This document shows, piece by piece, positions 11,351 to 63,409 of a DNA stretch of 64,000 nt (positions are counted from its first letter, which is position 1; each line of letters starts with the position of its first letter). The translations under genes and the position numbers were made by a program. The notes beneath the pieces were generated by a model, which worked only from the letters and a program-made list of their open reading frames with translations, had not been told where the DNA came from and ran no database searches. The DNA lies in assembly GCA_043806135.1 (NCBI GenBank), contig JAZDHG010000009.1, positions 430-64,429 of the forward strand. The letters run 5' to 3'. This DNA comes from Candidatus Omnitrophota bacterium (lineage in GTDB: Bacteria; Omnitrophota; Gorgyraeia; B26-G9).

Positions 11351-12628
11351 ATGAATAAGCTGCTAATCTTACTGCCTTTGTTGGGAATTATTTTTTTAAT
11401 TATTTTTTGGATTATAAATCCATTGATCGGGCCAAGTTTATCCGTGATTACGATTCCTTTTATGGCGCTTACCCTGGCTGCGATCAGGGAGAGAAAAAAG
11501 GGGGAAAAGGAGTTAGATGAGGCAGTAAAAATGTTTCAGGCAGAAAAAGAGGAAATTAAAAAGGAAATACAGAGAAAAGAAAAAAATCATGTAGAGCAGT
11601 ACATGGCTTTGCAGACTTTTAGCCGGGATCTTTCTACGTCGCTGAACAAAGATCAGCTGTTGAGAGTTATCGTAAGTACTTTTTCTAAGCTGACTCGTTC
11701 GGCTTCGGGAGAAAGCCAGTGTTTTTTGTTAAGCCACGATGACATAACGCAGGAGTTCAAATACGAAGTCGGTGATAATTTTGATTCCAACACATTAAAA
11801 ACAACTAGTTTCAACGCGGAAGATGATCTTATAAAGACAATAACGAAAACCAAGAAGATACAGACCTTTATAAGTGATATTTTCGGCGGCGATTCTAATA
11901 TCAGGTATTTTTTAAAAGAAGAACGGATCACGTATCTTTCTCAACTGGGATCGCTTGCTTTAATCCCTTTGATTTTAGAAAATGAGGTATGGGGGATAAT
12001 TGTTGTTTTCTGCCATGAAGGCGCAGCAGCCAGAATCAATAACGAGGAATTGTTTTATCTGCTGCTTGTTGCGCAGGCCTCAATCGCTCTGGGAAGCGCT
12101 ATACACCGCGGACTGGCTTCGGTCGACAGGTTGACACAGCTATATAATAGAACCTTTCTGCATAAGCGTATGAACGAAGAAATTGAATTTTGCAACCGGC
12201 AGTTACTGCCCATGAGTATACTGATGATCGATATTGACCATTTTAAAGATATCAACGATACTTATGGTCACCAGGAAGGTGATATGGTTTTAAAAAAAAT
12301 CGCTCAGATCGTCAGCAATTGCGTACGCTTGACCGACCTTTGCGCTAGATACGGCGGGGAAGAGTTTGTAGTTGTTTTACCAGGTATCGCGGAAAACGAG
12401 CAGGATGGGTTCTCTATAGCAGAACGGCTGAGAGCTTCTGTAGAAAAAGCGGATTTTGTCATCCTGGGTCAAAAACATCTGAAGATTACGATAAGTGTCG
12501 GTGTAACTGTACGCAAATACCCCGAAGATAAAGAAACCGATATGGAAAAACTTATAATCCGTGCGGACAGATTGCTGTATAAAGCTAAAAATGAGGGAAG
12601 AAATTGCGTGCGGTATGACGCACAATAA
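11351..12628 (+). CDS. Diguanylate cyclase (TM + sensory domain + GGDEF)
   Basis: GGEEF active-site motif (RYGGEEFVVVLPG), DxFK(D)INDTYGH motif, N-terminal TM helices. Confidence 0.8.
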   Translation: MNKLLILLPLLGIIFLIIFWIINPLIGPSLSVITIPFMALTLAAIRERKKGEKELDEAVKMFQAEKEEIKKEIQRKEKNHVEQYMALQTFSRDLSTSLNKDQLLRVIVSTFSKLTRSASGESQCFLLSHDDITQEFKYEVGDNFDSNTLKTTSFNAEDDLIKTITKTKKIQTFISDIFGGDSNIRYFLKEERITYLSQLGSLALIPLILENEVWGIIVVFCHEGAAARINNEELFYLLLVAQASIALGSAIHRGLASVDRLTQLYNRTFLHKRMNEEIEFCNRQLLPMSILMIDIDHFKDINDTYGHQEGDMVLKKIAQIVSNCVRLTDLCARYGGEEFVVVLPGIAENEQDGFSIAERLRASVEKADFVILGQKHLKITISVGVTVRKYPEDKETDMEKLIIRADRLLYKAKNEGRNCVRYDAQ

Positions 12629-12639
12629 ATAGGTGGAAA

Positions 12640-14322
12640 ATGTTTCAAAAACAAAAAAACTCTATAGGGCTTGAAATTGGTGATGGATTGGTAAAAGCAA
12701 TGCATATTGTTTCAACCCATAAAGAAAATAAGCTTATTGGTTTTGACATGGTGAGTGTGAACTTCCGCGAAGGCCGCCAGGGTATCGTCAATGCCATGAA
12801 AGATGTTCTCGGCAAATTGGGCTTAAATAAAAATGACAAAATTAATATCTCTGTATCCGGAGAATCTGTTATGGTGCGTGATATACACTGGCCGCAGATG
12901 ACTGATGATGAGATCAGGAAGGCCTTGAAGTTTGAAGTTGAGCGCCAGGTTCATTATAAGACTGAGGAAATTGTTTTTGATTATTATTCTGTTTTGGATA
13001 AGTCTATAGCTGAGACAAAAACAAGGGTTATCCTTGTCGCGGCTAAAAAAGATCTTATTGAAAACTATTCCAGCCTGATAGAGTCTGCAGGTTATAAGTG
13101 CGGATTCGTGGAAGTGGATACCTTCAGCTTGCTGAACTGCTTCTATGTTAACGGTCCTGATGTTCCGCCTGAAAAAACAATAGCGATTATCAATATCGGG
13201 CTTGAAGTTACGAATATTGATATTATAAAAGGAAAGATCGTTGGACTTACTAAAGATGCTTTTGTGGCTTGGAGCAATCTTGTGGATGTTTTGCCGGAAG
13301 GCGTAGAGTTTGATTTTGATAATGTCACTGCGCTAAAAGGATTAATGGGCACGGACGATGTCTATGAGCTTAGTTTGTTTATTATGAATGCGCTTTCCAA
13401 TCAGGTGCGCAGAACAATAGAGTTTTACGAAAGTCAGGGACGCGATACTGTAGAAGAAATATATTTAAGCGGAAAACTGGCGATGTATAAAAACCTGGAT
13501 AAGTATCTGCAGAATATCTTGGGCTTAAAAGTAACTGTTTGGAATCCGCTAGCAAATGTGAGTTATAATGCAAAACTGTTTGAAGGAAAGCATCTAAAGG
13601 AAAAGGCCCCGATGCTTGCTTTGTGCAGCGGTTTGGCCTGCAGAAGGGCTTTTGATATTGATCTTACGACTTCCAGAAAAGCGGAGCAAAGGAACAAGTT
13701 TGTGAGTTTTCTTGGACAGCATAAGGCACTTGTATATACATTTGTAGTTGTAGCATGCTTTCTTGCCGGCTTATGGGTAATTCTTTTGAGCCAGATCAAG
13801 GTGAAGGAAAACCGCAAGCAGGCGTTACTGTTTGAGAATCAAAAATTAAACGAGGTCCTCAAAGATATAGAAAACCTGAAGCAGGGAAGATTGATTTTAG
13901 GCGAGCATGTGAATATTGCGAAGACTTTGCTTTCGCATAGATTGCTCTGGAGTAAAAAACTTTTTCAAATAAGTAAAAGTGTATCCAATGAGATGTGGCT
14001 TAAGGAAATATTAATTAAGGAATTAAGCCCATCAAGTGCACCTCGTGAAAGTACTGCTCAGATCGGTACGGCCGTGGAAACCTCCGGCGCGGCAGAAGCT
14101 GTGCCTGAAAGGCCTCAGCTGGTTTTGATTATAAATGGTGTTGTTTATTCAGAATCGAGCAAAAACCTGCTGGGTGAGGTTAATCAGTTTATCAGCAATT
14201 TGAACAATGACCAGGGATTTAAAGAGGATTTTATTAAGATAGAGCTAAAACGTTCTTTTCGTGATACAGTCGGCAGCACGCCGATAATGAATTTCAGGAT
14301 TGAATGTACTTTAAATAGGTAA
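12640..14322 (+). CDS. pilM: Type IV pilus assembly PilM-PilN fusion protein
   Basis: Actin-like ATPase PilM fold over the first ~340 aa (SIGLEIGDGLVKAM...), then a TM helix (ALVYTFVVVACFLAGLWVILL) and a coiled-coil/periplasmic PilN-like region. 560 aa total against ~350 for a stand-alone PilM. Confidence 0.7.
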   Translation: MFQKQKNSIGLEIGDGLVKAMHIVSTHKENKLIGFDMVSVNFREGRQGIVNAMKDVLGKLGLNKNDKINISVSGESVMVRDIHWPQMTDDEIRKALKFEVERQVHYKTEEIVFDYYSVLDKSIAETKTRVILVAAKKDLIENYSSLIESAGYKCGFVEVDTFSLLNCFYVNGPDVPPEKTIAIINIGLEVTNIDIIKGKIVGLTKDAFVAWSNLVDVLPEGVEFDFDNVTALKGLMGTDDVYELSLFIMNALSNQVRRTIEFYESQGRDTVEEIYLSGKLAMYKNLDKYLQNILGLKVTVWNPLANVSYNAKLFEGKHLKEKAPMLALCSGLACRRAFDIDLTTSRKAEQRNKFVSFLGQHKALVYTFVVVACFLAGLWVILLSQIKVKENRKQALLFENQKLNEVLKDIENLKQGRLILGEHVNIAKTLLSHRLLWSKKLFQISKSVSNEMWLKEILIKELSPSSAPRESTAQIGTAVETSGAAEAVPERPQLVLIINGVVYSESSKNLLGEVNQFISNLNNDQGFKEDFIKIELKRSFRDTVGSTPIMNFRIECTLNR

Positions 14323-14326
14323 TCTC

Positions 14327-14896
14327 ATGAAGAAAAAACTAAGTCAAAAAGATCAAATATTTATTTCCGGAAGTATCATAATCGGGATAATAGTGTTGCT
14401 CTGTTTTATGTTCATTTTTCAGCCGATGCTGAAAAAGATCATGGATTACACTAAAGAGGAAGAAAACATAAAGGCGCAATTGAGAAAGGCAAGTAATTTA
14501 GCAGCGGATAAGGAAAAGTTAGCTGCTGAAGTTAAGAATATTTCAAAAATGATATTTTTTTATGAAGAAAGACTGCCGAAGAAGACAGATATTCCGCAAG
14601 TCCTGGATGAACTGGTAAAGATTGGAGAAAAATCTGAAGTAACATTTATTTCTATCGAACCGCAGGAGATTAAAAGAGTACATGTCGGACAGTCGGGTCA
14701 AAAAAACTATATAAAGATCCCGATAGAGCTAATATTAAAAGCAGGCTATCACGAGTTTGCCTTATTTGTCAACGGAGTGGAAAATTTCCCCCAGTTCATG
14801 CGGGTGGATAATGTAAAAATAAATGGTGATGTCAGCAATACTAGAAAGCATGATATCAGTCTTACGGTCACTGCTTTTGCTTTAGAGGACAATTAA
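14327..14896 (+). CDS. pilO: Type IV pilus assembly protein PilO-like
   Basis: N-terminal TM helix, a coiled coil, then a periplasmic domain; positioned between pilMN and pilP/pilQ. Confidence 0.6.
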   Translation: MKKKLSQKDQIFISGSIIIGIIVLLCFMFIFQPMLKKIMDYTKEEENIKAQLRKASNLAADKEKLAAEVKNISKMIFFYEERLPKKTDIPQVLDELVKIGEKSEVTFISIEPQEIKRVHVGQSGQKNYIKIPIELILKAGYHEFALFVNGVENFPQFMRVDNVKINGDVSNTRKHDISLTVTAFALEDN

Positions 14897-14898
14897 AA

Positions 14899-15342
14899 AT
14901 GCGACGATTTGCAGGAAGAATTACAATTAATGCAATACTGGTTTTAATAATCAGCGTGTTTTGCACTATGCTGCTGGTGTTTGATTCGCAGGCCGAAGAA
15001 TTTATTGAGCATAAGGATAAATTCATTTACACGCGAGATGGCCGCAATGATCCTTTTCTGCCTTTGCTTAGCGCTAAAGGGCTGGTGCAGGAAACGGGTC
15101 CAAGCACAAAAGAAGATATGATGCAATATGTCAGTAAAATAAATGTAAGCGGGATCCTGTGGGATGAAACGATGCCTTTCGTAGTGATAAATAATAAAAT
15201 GCGAAAAGAGGGCGACGTCGTAGAGAACCTGACAATCAAAAAAATAAACGTTAACGGTATAATTTTAGGATATCTTGACCTGACACATGAAATTATATTG
15301 ATAAAAAAGAAGAAAATGAACGATCAAGGAGGGGTTCAATGA
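14899..15342 (+). CDS. pilP: PilP-like small periplasmic or lipoprotein pilus assembly protein
   Basis: Signal/TM N-terminus, ~147 aa, immediately upstream of the secretin with overlapping stop/start. Confidence 0.45.
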   Translation: MRRFAGRITINAILVLIISVFCTMLLVFDSQAEEFIEHKDKFIYTRDGRNDPFLPLLSAKGLVQETGPSTKEDMMQYVSKINVSGILWDETMPFVVINNKMRKEGDVVENLTIKKINVNGIILGYLDLTHEIILIKKKKMNDQGGVQ

Positions 15343-16973
15343 AAGCAATAAACGAGTTCTCAAGGAAGAGAATATTTCTGATGTTGTTTATCTATCCGAG
15401 TCTCTTTCTCAGCATCATAATGCCGGTTTCCCAGGTGAGTTTTGCGATTGAAAGCGAAATAGAAAATAGCTTGGATGAGGAAATTACCGAGGCTGTGGCC
15501 AAGAATAGTTACGGGCAAAAATTGCTTTCCATAACGCTTAAAGAAACTGACTTAAGAGAAGTACTGAATATACTTGCTTTTAAAGGCGGGGTGAATATTA
15601 TCGCGGGTGATGATGTCGATTCCAAGGTTAATGTGCAGCTTAAAGATGTTCCCTGGGAACAGGCCCTTGACGTAATATTAAAAACCTATAATTATACTTA
15701 TAAACGGGAAGATAATCTTATCCGGGTAATGAGTCTGGCCAGGGCATTGGATGAAGAGAGTAAACTGCCGCTTGAAACAAGGATTATACCGCTTAATTTT
15801 GCCAAGGTCATCGATCTTAAAGAATCCTTGGGTAAAATATTGAGTAAACGCGGAACTATTGAAGTTGACGCCCGCACAAATTCCCTGATCATTACGGATG
15901 TTCCTGAAACCGTGCAAAAAGTTGAGATCGCGGCGATGGAACTTGATACCCGAACGCCTCAGGTTTTGATAGAAGCCATGATGGTTGATGTTAAGATTAC
16001 GGATAATGAAGAATGGGGAAGTATAATAAGCCAGCTTACAAATCTTAAATCCCGTAATAATTCAAATATTCTGACAACCAATATGCCTGCTTCACAGAAA
16101 AATAGCATTTCTTTCAATGCGGTCACTGACAATTTTGATATCAGCGGTTTTATTGATATTCTGATCACTCAAAATAAGGCGTCTATCCTGGCAAGCCCCA
16201 AAGTCTTAACGCTTGATAACCAGGAAGCAAAGATCGAAATAATTTCGAAGATCCCTTATTCAGAATCTGTTGATACAGGGGGAGGCACGACTGTTAATAT
16301 AAAATTTGAAGAGGCGGGCGTAAAACTTTCTGTAACTCCGCATGTAACAAGCGGTAAATTTATTTCTATGAATGTAAAACCTGAGCAAAGTTTTAGTATC
16401 GGGGAGTTCGGCGGACGTCCGATCATAGATTCAAGAAAAGCGGAAACAAACCTGCTGGTTAGAGACGGACAGACTATTGTTATCGGCGGATTGCGCCAGT
16501 CCAATGACACCTATAGCTTTAACAAAATGCCGATTTTGGGAGATATTCCTTTCGTAGGAATGCTTTTTAAAAGTAAGGTTAAGAAAAAGGAAGAAACAGA
16601 ACTTGTCCTATTTGTCACTCCGCATATAATTGTGCAGTCTATGCTCACAGACAGGGATTTGGAACTTTATGAAAAACTCGGCAATAGCGAAAAGATTGTT
16701 ATTGACGAAAAAACTGAGATGCAAAAACTAAAGGACTTTATGGGAACGGCAAAGGATCGGTTAAAGGCTAAAGAGATTGCCGAGCAGGAAGTATCGATGC
16801 GTAAAATGGAATTAGAAAAAACTGGAATTAAGGAAGACCCCGGAGTGAACACTAAAAAAAGTTCTAAAACTCTGCTTGGACCAAAAGCCGAAGATGATCC
16901 TGAAAAACGGGATAATCTGGAAATTGAAGCAAAAAAATTCCGCGACTCCTTAAACATGATGCAGACCAATTAA
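15339..16973 (+). CDS. pilQ: Type IV pilus secretin PilQ
   Basis: Signal peptide; secretin N-domain (ITLKETDLREVLNILAFKGGVNII); C-terminal secretin motifs (ILASPKVLTLDNQEAKIEI, IVIGGL, IPFVGMLFK...TELVLFVTPHII). Confidence 0.9.
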   Translation: MKAINEFSRKRIFLMLFIYPSLFLSIIMPVSQVSFAIESEIENSLDEEITEAVAKNSYGQKLLSITLKETDLREVLNILAFKGGVNIIAGDDVDSKVNVQLKDVPWEQALDVILKTYNYTYKREDNLIRVMSLARALDEESKLPLETRIIPLNFAKVIDLKESLGKILSKRGTIEVDARTNSLIITDVPETVQKVEIAAMELDTRTPQVLIEAMMVDVKITDNEEWGSIISQLTNLKSRNNSNILTTNMPASQKNSISFNAVTDNFDISGFIDILITQNKASILASPKVLTLDNQEAKIEIISKIPYSESVDTGGGTTVNIKFEEAGVKLSVTPHVTSGKFISMNVKPEQSFSIGEFGGRPIIDSRKAETNLLVRDGQTIVIGGLRQSNDTYSFNKMPILGDIPFVGMLFKSKVKKKEETELVLFVTPHIIVQSMLTDRDLELYEKLGNSEKIVIDEKTEMQKLKDFMGTAKDRLKAKEIAEQEVSMRKMELEKTGIKEDPGVNTKKSSKTLLGPKAEDDPEKRDNLEIEAKKFRDSLNMMQTN

Positions 16974-22584: not shown

Positions 22585-22854
22585 ACATCCTGTAACGAGT
22601 GAGCATAGGGATGTCTTGATCTCAGAGATTAAAAACTTGATCACAGCGATATACTAATATAAATTAATCTTTGCCCCGAGAAATCTGCACCCTGAAATTT
22701 TTTTGGAATTTCGGGTACTTAGTCCTGGGAATGCTGCGCATTCCACAGGGGAAGATTTCCGGAGTTGGGTGCCCCGCAAGGGTATAATCTATTAATAACC
22801 GTTGTAATCAGGTATAATCCAGATTATGTATGAGGATTATACCAGGAGTTAAGT
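22585..22854 (+). repeat. Repeat family A, full copy (terminator-like hairpin + ~130-nt structured core + alternative helices ending in the scpB SD)
   Basis: About 95% identical over ~190 nt to 57856-58054; the 5' hairpin CATCC...GGATG+UCUUG resembles copies at 57803 and 1292. Confidence 0.7.
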
Positions 22855-31009: not shown

Positions 31010-31058
31010 GTTATCAGTTAGTTTATTTAAAAAATTTCTGGCACATGTTTGAAACAGT

Positions 31059-31216
31059 GGCTGTGCTCCGCCGCAGCGGACAGGCTGCCCCTTAGCCCCC
31101 AGCCTTCCCCCGCACCAGAAAGACGGAGTCTTACGGTGCAGGGTAAAATTTCCTTTGTTAAATTAAGAAACCATGCCATGTATCGAGCTTTGCTCTGGTG
31201 CATGGGAATCAAAGCT
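31059..31216 (+). repeat. Repeat family B copy 1 (structured ~150-nt element)
   Basis: Conserved with 54792-54949 and 62848-62980. Internal hairpins GCACC-AGA-AAGAC-GGA-GTCTT-AC-GGTGC and CCATGTA...TRCATGG. Confidence 0.7.
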
Positions 31217-31469
31217 CCCGATACAGAGCATACGGGATAAATTCGACCATGTAACTTACCTCAATAATTCTGTAAGTTACGGTCTCATTTTAAAACCGCC
31301 CCTGAGAAATGTACACTTATTTTCTAATGGTTTAGGCTCACTGACTCTCCGCCTTTGGCGGATCGCCTCCGAAAAAGCAGTCCTGCCTTACGGCGCTACA
31401 ACATCGTGTTTGCGTCCAGCCACCTAAAACAAAGAAATATATGCTAAAAATTCCAAAAGGGGATAAGAA

Positions 31470-31610
31470 AAATATTACTGTTTTTTGACGCAATACGCAA
31501 CTCACAATTCATAACTAATTTCGCGACTTTTTACTTTTACCTTTTTACTTTTTACTTAGAATTGCGTCCATCTTCCTTCGGGTTTTTACGCAATACACAA
31601 TCCGCGATAC
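31470..31610 (-). repeat. Repeat family C fragment (inverted relative to the 47760-47900 copy)
   Basis: ctttttacttttacctttttac and the gaattgcgtccatcttcc blocks match the reverse complement of 47790-47895; tandem tacgcaa motifs. Confidence 0.45.
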
Positions 31611-32157: not shown

Positions 32158-32214
32158 TATATCTCCTCCTTTTCCAAAATTGTAACAGCCTCGTGTTAGG
32201 ATGTCAAGGGTACC

Positions 32215-32243
32215 AAAAACCCCACCCCCGGTGTGGGGTTTTT
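32215..32243. terminator. Bidirectional terminator-like hairpin (A-tract / GC stem / T-tract), copy 1
   Basis: AAAAACCCCACCCCCGGTGTGGGGTTTTT. Confidence 0.55.
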
Positions 32244-32392: not shown

Positions 32393-32965
32393 ATGGTTAA
32401 AATTAAAGAATTAAGTGAAATTGCAATTGCTATAGATACTTGGAACGATATTTTTTCCGATTTTGATCCCAGGCCTTTGAGCGAACGGATTCTTTCTGAA
32501 GATTTTATTATTGAACTAAAACAGCGTTATCGGGAAGCAAATAAAGGGGATCTTATTGTGATAATTTGCGCTCCGCAATCTCTTGAGGACAAAAAGTCGG
32601 AACGCACAGTCTCTAAGAGATTAAAACGCCATTTCCTGCACAGAGCTTTAATGCGAAGAAAAGAAAATAATCGTATTCGCATCCGGGGCATTGTATTTGT
32701 GCTGTGCGGTATTTGTTTTCTTACCTTTTTAACCCTGGCTGCCTATTATAAGTGGTTTAATGATTTAGCGATAAATATTATGAGTATTATAGTGATGCCT
32801 TTAGGATGGTTTGGTATATGGGAAGGATTTTCTAAGATTGTAGATATTTCATCCTCATTTATCCAAGAAGAAAGGTTTTATAATAAACTTAGCAAAGCGC
32901 AGTATTGTTTTACATATATCGCTGCTAATGCTGAACCAAAGCAAAGCGAAAACAAAAAAGGATGA
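32393..32965 (+). CDS. Hypothetical membrane protein
   Basis: Soluble N-terminal half followed by 2-3 TM helices; no recognisable domain. Confidence 0.4.
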   Translation: MVKIKELSEIAIAIDTWNDIFSDFDPRPLSERILSEDFIIELKQRYREANKGDLIVIICAPQSLEDKKSERTVSKRLKRHFLHRALMRRKENNRIRIRGIVFVLCGICFLTFLTLAAYYKWFNDLAINIMSIIVMPLGWFGIWEGFSKIVDISSSFIQEERFYNKLSKAQYCFTYIAANAEPKQSENKKG

Positions 32966-32977
32966 ACTTCCAATCAG

Positions 32978-33007
32978 AAAAACCCCACCCCCGGGGTGGG
33001 GTTTTTG
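32978..33007. terminator. Bidirectional terminator-like hairpin, copy 2 (nearly identical to 32215-32243)
   Basis: AAAAACCCCACCCCCGGGGTGGGGTTTTTGG. Confidence 0.55.
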
Positions 33008-33272
33008 GTGATCCCTCTCAAACTGAGGACAGGTGAATGATTAAGCTGCAGCATGTTTAACATATTGATATATTGGGTGTATTTTGGGGTAAGTTCAAAT
33101 TGTAACTTATGTTCCCGGTTTATTTTGTTAACTATGTTACCAGTTTTTACCCAAGATTGGATTGCATAGGTTCAATCTCTTTTTTATTCCCCTTTTTAGC
33201 TCGACAAATTGTTTAGAGAATATTATAATTAACACAGAGGCAAAAAGGGGAGAGACGTAGAAAAAACAACCA

Positions 33273-39740: not shown

Positions 39741-40232
39741 GTGAGTAAAGATGTTTTTACGCATCATCGGCTTCAGTTTAAATCCCATATCGGGTTTTTG
39801 CTGGCAGCCATCGGCTCTGCTGTGGGGATGGGAAATATATGGCGTTTTTCGTATCTTTGTTATAAAAACGACGGCGTGTTTCTGATGCCGTACTTTATAG
39901 CCTTGTTCGCAGGCGCTATCCCCTTGATGAGCCTGGAGATAGCTCTAGGACATAAAATGCGCGGTTCAGCACCGGCATCGGTTGTCAGTATTGATAAAAA
40001 ATGGGAGCGGGATGTTTCTGTTAAATTCATTGCTGCGCTTATATTACTGGGATTACTGCTCACTACGATATTTGAGGAGATCGCTGCGCCCTACGGTAAT
40101 TACTCACGCCTTGCGATTATCCTTATTGGCAGAGATGGGATCATCATGACTGTTTTTGTCGCGTTTTTTGCCGCCTTAAGCGCATGGAAAGTAGATCCGC
40201 AGCACATGATGATTGAACTGGGAAAAAATTAG
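39741..40232 (+). pseudogene. Truncated neurotransmitter:sodium symporter (NSS/SNF) family transporter; only the N-terminal ~95 aa are family-like
   Basis: GFLLAAIGSAVGMGNIWRFSYLCYKNDGVFLMPYFIALFAGAIPLMSLEIALG matches NSS TM1-TM2. The ORF is 163 aa against ~450-500 for an intact NSS. GTG start. Confidence 0.5.
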
Positions 40233-54641: not shown

Positions 54642-54791
54642 GAAAAAAAAGATTGAACTGGAAACTAAGGGGTCAGCCTGTCAACTCGAAACTAATTGAC
54701 ATGGGAAACAATAGAAAGAGGGACGTTGTTTAAGGTTTTAAAGTGTAGTTATGGTCATCAAAAGCTAATTATTTAGTGCATTTTTGAGGTA

Positions 54792-54949
54792 GGGGCTGTG
54801 CTCCGCCACAGCGGACAGGCTGCCCCTTAAAGCACAGCCTTCCCCCGCACCAGAAAGACGGAGTCTTGCAGTGCAGGGTAAAATTTCATTTGTAAAATTA
54901 AGAAACCATGCCATGTATCGAGATTTGCTCTGGTACATGGGAAGCAAAG
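54792..54949 (+). repeat. Repeat family B copy 2
   Basis: See 31059-31216; same orientation. Confidence 0.7.
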
Positions 54950-54976
54950 AAAATTAAACATAGATTTCAAATTGGG

Positions 54977-55159
54977 GAATATAAAACCCTAAGAACACCT
55001 CCTGGGTGTACTCTTTTGGTTGTTGCCTTGACGGATGCCTCGGGTGCGGTGGTGGAATCTTACGAGTATGATGTATACGGAAATACTAAAATTCTAGACG
55101 CTAATCACTTACCGCTAGCCGCTAGCCAAATCGGCAATCCTGCAGTTATTTCCTCTTGA
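54977..55159 (+). pseudogene. Orphan YD/RHS-repeat fragment (...LTDASGAVVESYEYDVYGNTKIL...)
   Basis: YD-repeat signature xYxYDxxGN directly after the family B repeat; only ~60 codons, with no start of its own. Confidence 0.4.
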
Positions 55160-55256
55160 TCAAAACAAAATAGTGGAATATTGGTGTAAAATATTATATA
55201 CTAATGACGTTTAAATATTAAATTTCAGGGGGTTGCATCAAAAATTAGGAGGAGAA

Positions 55257-57799: not shown

Positions 57800-58054
57800 A
57801 GACATCCTATAACGATAAAGTAGCAGGATGTTTTGATCACATAGATTAGATGGAGATTAATGGTTTAATCCTTGCCCCGAGAAATCTGCACCCTGAAATT
57901 TTTTTGGAATTTCGGGTACTTAGTCCTGGGAATGCTGCGCATTCCACAGGGGAAGATTTCCGGAGTTGGGTGCCCCGCAAGGGTATAATCTGTTATTAAT
58001 CGTTGTAATCAGGTATAATCCAGCTTAAGCATGAGGATTATACCAAGGAGTTTT
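57800..58054 (+). repeat. Repeat family A, full copy 2 (ends in the SD of rnfE)
   Basis: About 95% identical to 22664-22854 over the core. Confidence 0.7.
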
Positions 58055-62689: not shown

Positions 62690-62847
62690 TTAGGCGTTTT
62701 GGCTCAGAAAGAGGTGGCGGTTCTATTTGATTGATGAATGATATTAGTTTTAACAGAGAACGATTCTTGAAAATAAGAAATGTTTTTGTTTTATGTTGTT
62801 GGGGTGATGCACCCGCATGATTTTCACTGAAAATCAAAACGCAAGTA

Positions 62848-62980
62848 CAGGCCTGCCCCAGACCCCAGCCTTCCCCCGCACCAGAAAGACGGAGTCTTAC
62901 GGTGCAGGGTAAAATTTCATTTGTTAAATTATGAAGCCATGCCATGTATCGAGCTTTACCCTGGTACATGGGAAGCAAAA
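62848..62980 (+). repeat. Repeat family B copy 3 (5'-truncated relative to copies 1 and 2)
   Basis: See 31059-31216; same orientation. Confidence 0.65.
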
Positions 62981-63409
62981 CTTGTCCCTCTTATTGATGG
63001 CGGGATAATGCACTTGGTTTTGAATGGAGAAAATATGACATGTGATATATTCAGTAATGCAATTATATTGCAGGCTAAACGCTGCTCGCTGAAAGTTGGA
63101 TATAATACAAAACTGATTGCAAAACTTATGTATCAAAGTAGGATATTAATTGTTTTCAGTTTTTGAAAGTTATGGTTTTTTTTGAATTTCTTGACAAAAT
63201 TGAAGATCACAGGTAAACTTTATTCTAATAAGCAGAATGAGTTAGAATTCTGCGTATTAAATAAAATCATATAATTTTAATAGTCTAATATCGGAGAGAG
63301 ATGTTGATTGTTTTTCTACGATTAATCTGCTTTAAAATATAATCTATTAGAAAAGATTTTCTAATAGATTTTTTTATTTTAAGGATAAACAAAAAATGGA
63401 AGTGAATTT

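Follow-up and report, generated by a model that had tools for sequence, protein, structure and literature searches.

A modular, structured non-coding repeat of Candidatus Omnitrophota, tentatively related to hairpin-dependent transposons

What are the three hairpin-rich repeats that recur within 64 kb of a Candidatus Omnitrophota genome, and what do they belong to? They lie in a 64,000-nt stretch (assembly GCA_043806135.1, contig JAZDHG010000009.1, positions 430 to 64,429; hereafter the window). An initial annotation, made from the sequence alone, had described three same-strand, about 90% identical copies of a ~150-nt element and had offered three readings: a small RNA, a structured leader of toxin genes of the RHS type, or one end of an element mobilised by Xer. 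BLAST agrees with the description of the copies: there are three, all direct and on the + strand (31044-31214, 54779-54949 and 62847-62982; lengths 135-171 nt), with pairwise identities of 90% (copies 1 and 2), 91% (copies 1 and 3) and 90% (copies 2 and 3) and E-values of 1e-40 to 1e-55. The identity of copies 1 and 2 spans 171 nt, and these two have an additional 15-30 nt in common at the 5' side. Both hairpins that had been drawn, here called hairpin 1 and hairpin 2, occur in all three copies. The element is very probably a non-coding, modular, structured repeat, neither an RHS leader nor a Xer site. Its 150-nt unit is a form of the hairpin domain P2 that has expanded in this lineage, and P2 is in turn one module of a longer element.

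Logan assemblies from two other sequencing runs hold contigs of this strain (99.6-99.9% identical) that break within the copies. One (L004) has its 3' limit at window position 62892, within copy 3, and another (L009) has its first base at 54838, within copy 2. Such breaks, arising independently in separate assemblies, are what a true repeat should cause; the element, of which three copies are known here in 64 kb, breaks short-read assemblies of this organism.

The family sample comprises eight members from five or six genomes, five with the 150-nt core and three of a short form. An all-frames concatenated peptide search with the element returned one spurious open reading frame (ORF), P0006 on contig L007, and an exhaustive phmmer search with P0006 returned one further ORF, P0007 on contig L008. 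Both contigs (ENA, ZHAN22-2 metagenomes) have the core, 92-97% identical, and in both the loop of hairpin 2 contains an inserted 36-nt nested hairpin. Relatives L011-L013 and L017 were reached via rpsA homologues; L011 is a JGI relative whose S1 is 85% identical. An nhmmer profile and a covariance model of the region that follows the core of copy 1, the B domain, were searched against the window and the collected loci, and matched at copy 1 in the window, in L007, in L008 (partially), in L011-L013 (twice each) and in L017. The usual 3' partner of the core is this B domain, not a gene.

The B-carrying relatives reached through rpsA (L011-L013, L017) lack the core that the initial annotation had described. 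Their B domain is preceded by a GC hairpin (GGGGCYGTTCCGCCCC) followed by TTAAACCCCAGAC, then an AT hairpin (CTTTCTTTT...AAAAGAAAG) and GCAAAG. In the window copies, the 5' part (GGCTGTGCTCCGCC...CCCCTTAGCCCCCAGCC) is a homologue of the GC hairpin region of these relatives, P1 corresponding to GGGGCTGTTCCGCCCC-TTAAACCCCAGAC in L017 and L011, and the window cores end in the same GAAGCAAAG junction. The core itself sits where the relatives have the simple AT hairpin, between CCCCAG(A/C)C and GCAAAG. The 5' homology and the common junction therefore point to hairpin 1, linker and hairpin 2 as a lineage-specific expansion of P2. The basic element is about 230 nt long and consists of P1 (GC), P2 (AT), the GCAAAG junction and a B domain of about 170 nt. 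As a measure of the best-conserved part the ~150-nt unit holds, but not as the extent of the repeat, for copy 1 runs on to about 31462 (Smith-Waterman against L007, z=16; covariance model match in Table 1).

Table 1. Features of the repeat element in the window, with positions in the 64,000-nt stretch
Feature	Position	Strand	Sequence and remarks
Copy 1, P1 (5' hairpin domain)	31057-31104	+	GTGGC...GCCCC with inserted inner hairpin GCTGTG/CGCAGC, then junction CCCCTTAGCCCCCAGCC
Copy 1, core (expanded P2)	31105-31214	+	hairpin 1, linker, hairpin 2, junction
Copy 1, hairpin 1	31109-31143	+	CCCGCACC-AGA-AAGAC-GGA-GTCTT-AC-GGTGCAGGG
Copy 1, AT-rich linker	31144-31175	+	
Copy 1, hairpin 2	31176-31205	+	CCATGTATCGAGC-TTT-GCT(C)TGGTRCATGG
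Copy 1, core junction	31206-31214	+	GAATCAAAG
Copy 1, hp3 (optional hairpin)	31215-31238	+	TCCCG...CGGGA
Copy 1, extra hairpin	31251-31280	+	perfect 9-bp hairpin GTAACTTAC/GTAAGTTAC; optional region 31215-31285
Copy 1, B domain	31286-31462	+	~170-nt structured module closed by CCCC/GGGG; covariance model R1 137.7 bits, E 4e-27
Copy 2	54779-54949	+	P1 and core; hairpin 1 54844-54878, hairpin 2 54911-54940; 3' end GCAAAG
Downstream of copy 2	54950-55175	+	ORF with weak YD-like stretch and B central hairpin remnant GCCAAATCGGCAATCCTGC (55125-55143)
Copy 3	62847-63008	+	5'-shortened P1; hairpin 1 62875-62909, hairpin 2 62942-62971, hp3 62983-63008; no B

Copy 1 is the expanded element in full, spanning about 405 nt (31057-31462) and including two extra hairpins, and copies 2 and 3 are 3'-truncated derivatives that kept P1, P2 and the junction and lack B; in the window, the covariance model R1 matched only at copy 1. 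P1 is shorter in L008 and partly missing in copy 3, and its inner stem changes from G-C to A-T between copies 1 and 2 and L007. The most invariant stretch of the core is the linker GGGTAAAATTTCCTTTGTTAAATTAAGAAAC, beside the nested perfect palindrome AAGAC-GGA-GTCTT, and copy 1 has an alternative long-range pairing of 31105-31119 with 31194-31208. The hairpin hp3 has counterparts in copy 3, L007 and L008 of the form TTGTCCC(GCC)...(GGC)GGGA with differing tips (copy 3 against L007, 77% over 48 nt), and the extra 9-bp hairpin is confined to copy 1. Within B, a long-range helix joins TTATTTTCTAATGGTTTAG to CTAAAACAAAGAAAT, and the tip of the central hairpin reads GGCAATCCTGCC in other members and GCAGTCCTGCC, a variant, in copy 1. 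Growth of the module by nested hairpin insertion is seen in the hairpin 2 loop of L007 and L008 and in the P2 expansion of the window lineage. A B homologue downstream of copy 2 was considered and judged marginal: a 19-nt remnant (95% match to L007) scored E 0.03 in an nhmmer search with the B profile restricted to that region, where 1 of 200 shuffles equalled it, and the covariance model was silent.

The element is restricted to a narrow group within Candidatus Omnitrophota. Scans for exact patterns of the core in GTDB species genomes, JGI metagenomes and IMG/VR gave chance matches of 20-22 nt or none, and BLAST against plasmid and phage records gave no match. Members outside the window are the ENA contigs, the NCBI relatives and, for the B module only, JGI L011-L014, with none other in the scanned collections. 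No Rfam 15 family (including HEARO, IS605-associated motifs, the group II intron and riboswitches) matched the element at the gathering threshold, and at E up to 10 only noise was returned for copy 1, L007, L011 and L017.

The B domain shows strong covariation, in support of a conserved secondary structure. In an alignment of four to five distinct sequences, from which the structure was itself predicted and in which RNA and single-stranded DNA are indistinguishable, RNAalifold gave 43 pairs with 90% of cells paired and compensatory double changes at 17 of them, a count equalled by 0 of 500 shuffles (slid controls, 1-3). The short form, from three relatives, gave 68 pairs, of which 19 show compensatory changes. 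On the + strand of B there are 12 G.U cells and 6 A.C cells, a weak hint that this is the folded strand. The fold, of RNA or of single-stranded DNA, has covariation support and is absent from Rfam.

The core behaves differently, as none of its 30 pairs has a compensatory change and it is too invariant to test. The initial annotation had noted that an A to G change in the second stem of copy 1 preserves pairing only if the + strand is the RNA. The change is real, but the argument cancels out: three one-sided changes preserve pairing on the + strand only, and of the four cells left unpaired there, three could pair as G.U on the - strand (a G to A in hairpin 1 of copy 2 and two in the hairpin 2 tip of copy 3). 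The evidence for the two strands is offset, and thus the core carries no strand signal. A small or structured RNA, as had been suggested, draws partial support from the covariation in B, which had not been seen earlier, but not from the 150-nt core.

The earlier view that the conservation is not protein-coding was confirmed. Small ORFs within the copies, on both strands, differ almost entirely by non-synonymous changes, and none of the frames stays open in every copy. One ORF, MPCIE, is open over 74-84 codons in all three window copies and closed in L007 and L008 (after 8 codons). A shared GCA(G/A)TCCTGCC block falls in different frames in copy 1 and L007, and the conserved ORF on the minus strand had no homologue in a protein search. 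Several other classes were rejected. The anatomy, with Rfam silent, speaks against group II intron domain V/VI, a K-turn, an integron attC, a tmRNA or tRNA att duplication, a retron and CRISPR. Template and variable repeats of a diversity-generating retroelement were dismissed (no reverse transcriptase gene, and changes not limited to adenines), as was a sigma-54 promoter in the 5' flank, where TGGCAC-N5-TGA lacks the GC of the -12 box.

Presence of the element varies between relatives at one syntenic site. The spacer between rpsA and the convergent DUF2148 gene measures 674 nt in the window, where copy 1 starts 78 nt after rpsA, just beyond the rpsA terminator, and opposes the 3' end of the DUF2148 gene. 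The same spacer is only about 125 nt long and element-free in L010 (S1 91% identical) and L016 (S1 81%), and in L017 (GCA_043814605.1, S1 81%) a short-form element lies directly after the rpsA terminator (covariance model, 118.7 bits). The best-supported account is that of a non-coding, modular element, folding as a single strand, which intergenic spacers gain and lose.

The L017 locus links the element to a transposase. After the element come a promoter-like site (read by eye), an HNH ORF of 103 aa (Pfam HNH_5, 1e-4) on the same strand with the element about 160 nt upstream, and a Y1 transposase gene, which is frameshifted (12473-12700 and 12711-13001) and lies 550 nt 3' of the element. This gene matches NCBIfam REP_Tyr_transpos (NF047646) at 7e-14 and Pfam Y1_Tnp (PF01797) at 4e-6. 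It is followed by AGGCAATCCCGCC (13013-13025), a near copy, in direct orientation, of the B central hairpin tip, so that the unit from HNH to hairpin occupies 12081-13025. The corresponding AGGCAATCCTGCC in B lies at 11830-11842, and both small hairpins are on the + strand. This two-hairpin arrangement was seen at one locus, and its left hairpin is about 140 nt inside the element.

We tentatively propose, at slightly short of an even chance, that the element is a gene-less relative of an IS200/IS605- or RAYT-type transposon. The element would be the structured non-coding end of such a unit, or a descendant of that end. The unit would owe its mobility to a Y1 (HUH) transposase acting at the replication fork, where the enzyme recognises hairpins in single-stranded DNA. 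In a full-length unit, the Y1 and HNH genes would be flanked by a B-type end on the left and a GGCAATCCYGCC hairpin on the right. The window copies would be passengers or remnants without genes, similar to PATEs or REPINs. Y1/HUH enzymes act on single-stranded DNA hairpins at the lagging-strand template, and orientation on that template is reported for IS608 and ISDra2 (PMC6006769). All three window copies lie on the + strand under positive GC skew, which corresponds to the lagging-strand template. The shared orientation that had been pointed out is thus correct, but says little, since nearly all window genes are also on the + strand.

The transposon reading fits the absence of inverted termini and of target duplications, the post-terminator position and the orientation on the lagging-strand template. 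A search for inverted repeats in copy 1 and in the L017 element returned internal hairpins only, and the flanks of the copies have no consistent direct repeat; a classical miniature inverted-repeat transposable element was rejected, since terminal inverted repeats are missing and the copies have different flanks. An additional use as RNA is suggested by the large, covarying B domain and by the exceptionally strong conservation of the core, and the folded body would probably also be transcribed. The repeat, its modular anatomy, the covariation in B, presence and absence at one syntenic site and a Y1 transposase with an HNH gene next to one member are all shown; movement by this type of transposase and transcription we infer. 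That the repeat might be part of something mobile, as the initial annotation had supposed, fits this evidence, with the difference that the associated enzyme is a Y1/HUH transposase and not Xer.

Several findings weigh against a transposon origin. The link to Y1 is one locus with a frameshifted gene, and the HNH and transposase genes of L017 may have inserted independently next to the element. Among about 45 window ORFs annotated with Pfam there is no transposase, reverse transcriptase or nuclease gene, and remnants of HNH or Y1 genes, sought in the window, were not found. On neither strand do the ends show a fixed target tetra- or pentanucleotide or a cleavage site: the 5' borders are ragged (copies 1 and 2 against copy 3 and L008), and what follows GCAAA(G) varies between AAAACC..., CTTGTCCC..., CTCCCG... 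and AAAATT.... L011 has two B-containing elements in opposite orientations between DUF2148 and tyrS. A 170-nt multi-helix B domain with a long-range helix resembles a functional RNA more than a hairpin recognised by a transposase. Between genomes the core (97% identical in copy 1 and L007) is far better conserved than B (about 70%), a difference that simple neutral decay of a selfish repeat does not explain. The sample itself is small.

The main rival is a plain small RNA family, and a promoter cassette and an OMEGA-like RNA are lesser ones. As free-standing structured small RNA genes of about 230-405 nt, acting in trans or binding a protein, the members would owe their copy number to ordinary duplication and deletion, with copies 2 and 3 as decaying pseudo-copies and the L017 transposase as incidental. 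The strong covariation in B and in the short form, the excess of G.U cells on the + strand of B and the conservation of the core far beyond its flanks across genomes all suit such genes. So do the variable-length hairpin insertions at helix tips (P1, P2 and hp3), which occur in many structured RNAs, and a strong sigma-70-like site upstream of one L011 copy (TTGACA-17-TACAAT, read by eye). However, neither a conserved promoter nor an intrinsic terminator turned up within or near the window copies, Rfam holds no such family and there is no conserved neighbour gene, while the truncated copies, presence and absence at one site among close relatives and the two orientations in L011 are reminiscent of DNA that is mobile or unstable; we regard this explanation as somewhat unlikely. 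In a portable promoter or operator cassette, hairpin 1 would be a palindromic operator and TAAAAT in the linker a -10 box, serving the B RNA (copy 1), yajC-secDF (copy 2) and a secreted protein (copy 3). The invariance of the linker beside the perfect palindrome is what one would look for there, and genes on the + strand begin 280-430 nt after copies 2 and 3. Yet a promoter scan found no site inside the element (the -35 match is 3/6), promoter-like sites of their own precede the gene after copy 3 and, by reading, yajC, copy 1 opposes a convergent gene, and the asymmetric loop (AGA vs AC) suits a single-strand hairpin better than a duplex operator, which makes the cassette improbable.

Were the element instead an omega-RNA-like partner of the 103-aa HNH nuclease, the window copies would be solo RNAs. 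The same-strand position of the L017 RNA shortly upstream of the HNH ORF, in a unit that also encodes a Y1 transposase, speaks for this, as does a weak match of the ORF to NCBIfam guided_IscB (E 0.046, HNH region only). That match reaches only 12.9 bits against a cut-off of 175, however; the protein lacks a RuvC or PLMP region, HEARO and the other IS-associated RNA families of Rfam do not match, a promoter-like site stands between RNA and ORF, and the arrangement was seen at one locus, so that the chance of an OMEGA-like guide RNA is slim. It is equally slim for the specific proposal of a guide or scaffold RNA of an undescribed tiny HNH nuclease carried by Y1 in an IS200/IS605-like transposon of Omnitrophota, in which the window copies would be solo or expanded RNAs and the 150-nt core a lineage-specific domain under selection. 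The two original readings, in which the element is a structured leader for RHS-type toxins or one end of an IMEX-like element mobilised by Xer, are hardly credible. The RHS leader rested on a YD-like stretch in the ORF after copy 2, which scores Pfam RHS_repeat E 0.034 (15 bits vs a cut-off of 22) and RHS E 0.12, with no NCBIfam match at E up to 1. The 3' end of this ORF (..IGNPA) is encoded by the 19-nt remnant of the B central hairpin, no YD-like sequence stands beside the other seven of the eight members, and copy 1 lies between convergent genes. For Xer, copy 3 does follow xerD directly (158 nt), but adjacency is at chance level and the xerD gene has a housekeeping context. The linker GTGCAGGGTAA-AATTTC-CTTTGTTAAAT is dif-like by reading, but this candidate (31143-31163, with one further mismatch in copy 2) is internal to the element and not at a border as proposed, and a search allowing up to 3 mismatches gave 11 window hits against 8.2 expected. 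The window has no sign switch of GC skew that would mark a terminus, and recombination between the direct copies would delete essential genes. Nothing here speaks for a leader of RHS toxins or an island mobilised by Xer on balance, and a false lead is removed.

The window has 41% GC, positive GC skew throughout and nearly all genes on the + strand, and Pfam assigned only housekeeping functions to its ORFs. These include type IV pilus/type II secretion system genes, nusA-infB, aromatic amino-acid genes, cmk-plsC-rpsA, tyrS, recG, fusA, ruvCAB, queuosine and glycerol genes, yajC-secDF, UDG and xerD. Copy 2 has a GDPD gene on one side and yajC on the other. Copy 3 precedes a secreted-protein gene as described, but 430 nt separate them and the gene has its own promoter-like site at 63191-63219.

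The rpsA-DUF2148 spacer is a hot spot for gene gain. In L011, positions 11761-15903 between the two genes hold an 82-aa ORF, a 1177-aa PAS histidine kinase and a response regulator; an inversion of the segment between the two L011 copies was considered and rejected, L011, L012 and L013 being collinear. In L016 (GCA_016213925.1, about 11607-11675) the 3' end of rpsA has six tandem copies of GCATGAAGCAA, in which GAAGCAA(G) resembles the GAAGCAAAG junction, which may be coincidence. The 920-nt spacer after rpsA in L018 (11900-12560) is full of other GC hairpins with the core GCATCGTGC (CCTGCATCGTGCAGG, CCCGCATCGTGCGGG), which suggests other hairpin-repeat families in the clade. Downstream of the element, L007 (630-692) and L008 (1270-1345) have a large imperfect palindrome of GCTAATAG-type units, in opposite orientation relative to the element in the two contigs.

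Other non-coding features were noted in the window. A c-di-GMP-I riboswitch at 1146-1220 on the + strand (RF01051, 36.3 bits vs a gathering threshold of 35) lies upstream of an ORF at 1443-2111 and a run of pilin-like (N_methyl) genes, and a GGDEF gene occupies 11351-12628. A second repeat family has 181-nt copies, 96% identical, at 22664-22844 (between scpA and scpB) and 57865-58045 (after secDF). Its 42-nt head also occurs at 1314-1355, right after the riboswitch, and at 22609-22650 and 57826-57867; Rfam has no match, and Logan contig L009 ends within this repeat. After recG, a sodium:neurotransmitter symporter gene (39741-40232, +) is truncated to 163 aa (Pfam SNF positions 1-71 of 524) and is probably a pseudogene; relatives L011, L017 and L018 have an intact gene of 506-508 aa there. 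Two nearly identical 32-nt GC-rich palindromes, AAAAACCCCACCCCCGGKGTGGGGTTTTT, at 32212-32243 and 32978-33009, flank an ORF for a 190-aa uncharacterised membrane protein (32393-32965) and look like bidirectional terminators or borders of an inserted gene. Low-complexity tracts of the TTTTTAC- and GCTACT-type recur in spacers in both orientations (31527-31553/47872-47898 and 43075-43107/47704-47736), and one of them probably explains the end of Logan contig L005 at window position 31528.

Compared with known systems, the element comes closest to IS200/IS605 transposons and their PATEs in its general anatomy. Like them it has hairpin-rich ends without terminal inverted repeats or target duplication, is intergenic, may follow the replication strand (in the window), varies in presence between close relatives and has, beside one member, a Y1 gene with similar small hairpins on both sides in direct orientation. 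Unlike IS200/IS605, it has a multi-helix body of 230-405 nt, whereas TnpA needs subterminal hairpins of 20-40 nt; it has no defined cleavage or target tetranucleotide, its accessory gene encodes a 103-aa HNH protein and not TnpB or IscB, and the L017 transposase scores higher as a RAYT than as an IS200 TnpA. REP and REPIN sequences are non-autonomous extragenic palindromes tied to RAYT, a single-copy Y1 transposase; REPs measure 20-40 nt and REPINs about 100 nt, and they form inverted doublets around RAYT and reach hundreds of copies (PMC3116915, PMC3337134). The L017 transposase has its best match in the RAYT model, and the GC hairpin GGC-AATCCY-GCC recurs next to its gene, but the element is longer (230-405 nt) and modular, and the small hairpins of L017 are direct, not inverted.

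The omega-RNA or HEARO RNAs of IscB, IsrB and IshB, reportedly described by Weinberg in 2009 and Altae-Tran in 2021, resemble the element as large structured RNAs in IS200/IS605-type elements that stand upstream of an HNH ORF, are often solo and behave as mobile DNA. In contrast to them, the element has no Rfam HEARO match and no guide segment, its ORF is 103 aa long without RuvC or PLMP, and the association was seen once. BOX (pneumococcal), ERIC (enterobacterial) and Correia (Neisseria) repeats are multi-copy, intergenic, modular hairpin repeats, and like the element they consist of modules in varying combinations, with predicted stable single-strand folds and no coding capacity. They have no sequence relationship to it, Correia and ERIC have inverted termini, and all three lack a covarying 170-nt domain or a Y1 transposase neighbour. 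If the transposon reading is true, the element would be a new, unusually large and highly structured non-coding module tied to HUH/Y1 transposons, from a phylum that is uncultivated and little known. As a kind of element, hairpin repeats with a link to HUH transposons are familiar; the size, the modular growth and the covarying domain set this variant apart as new.

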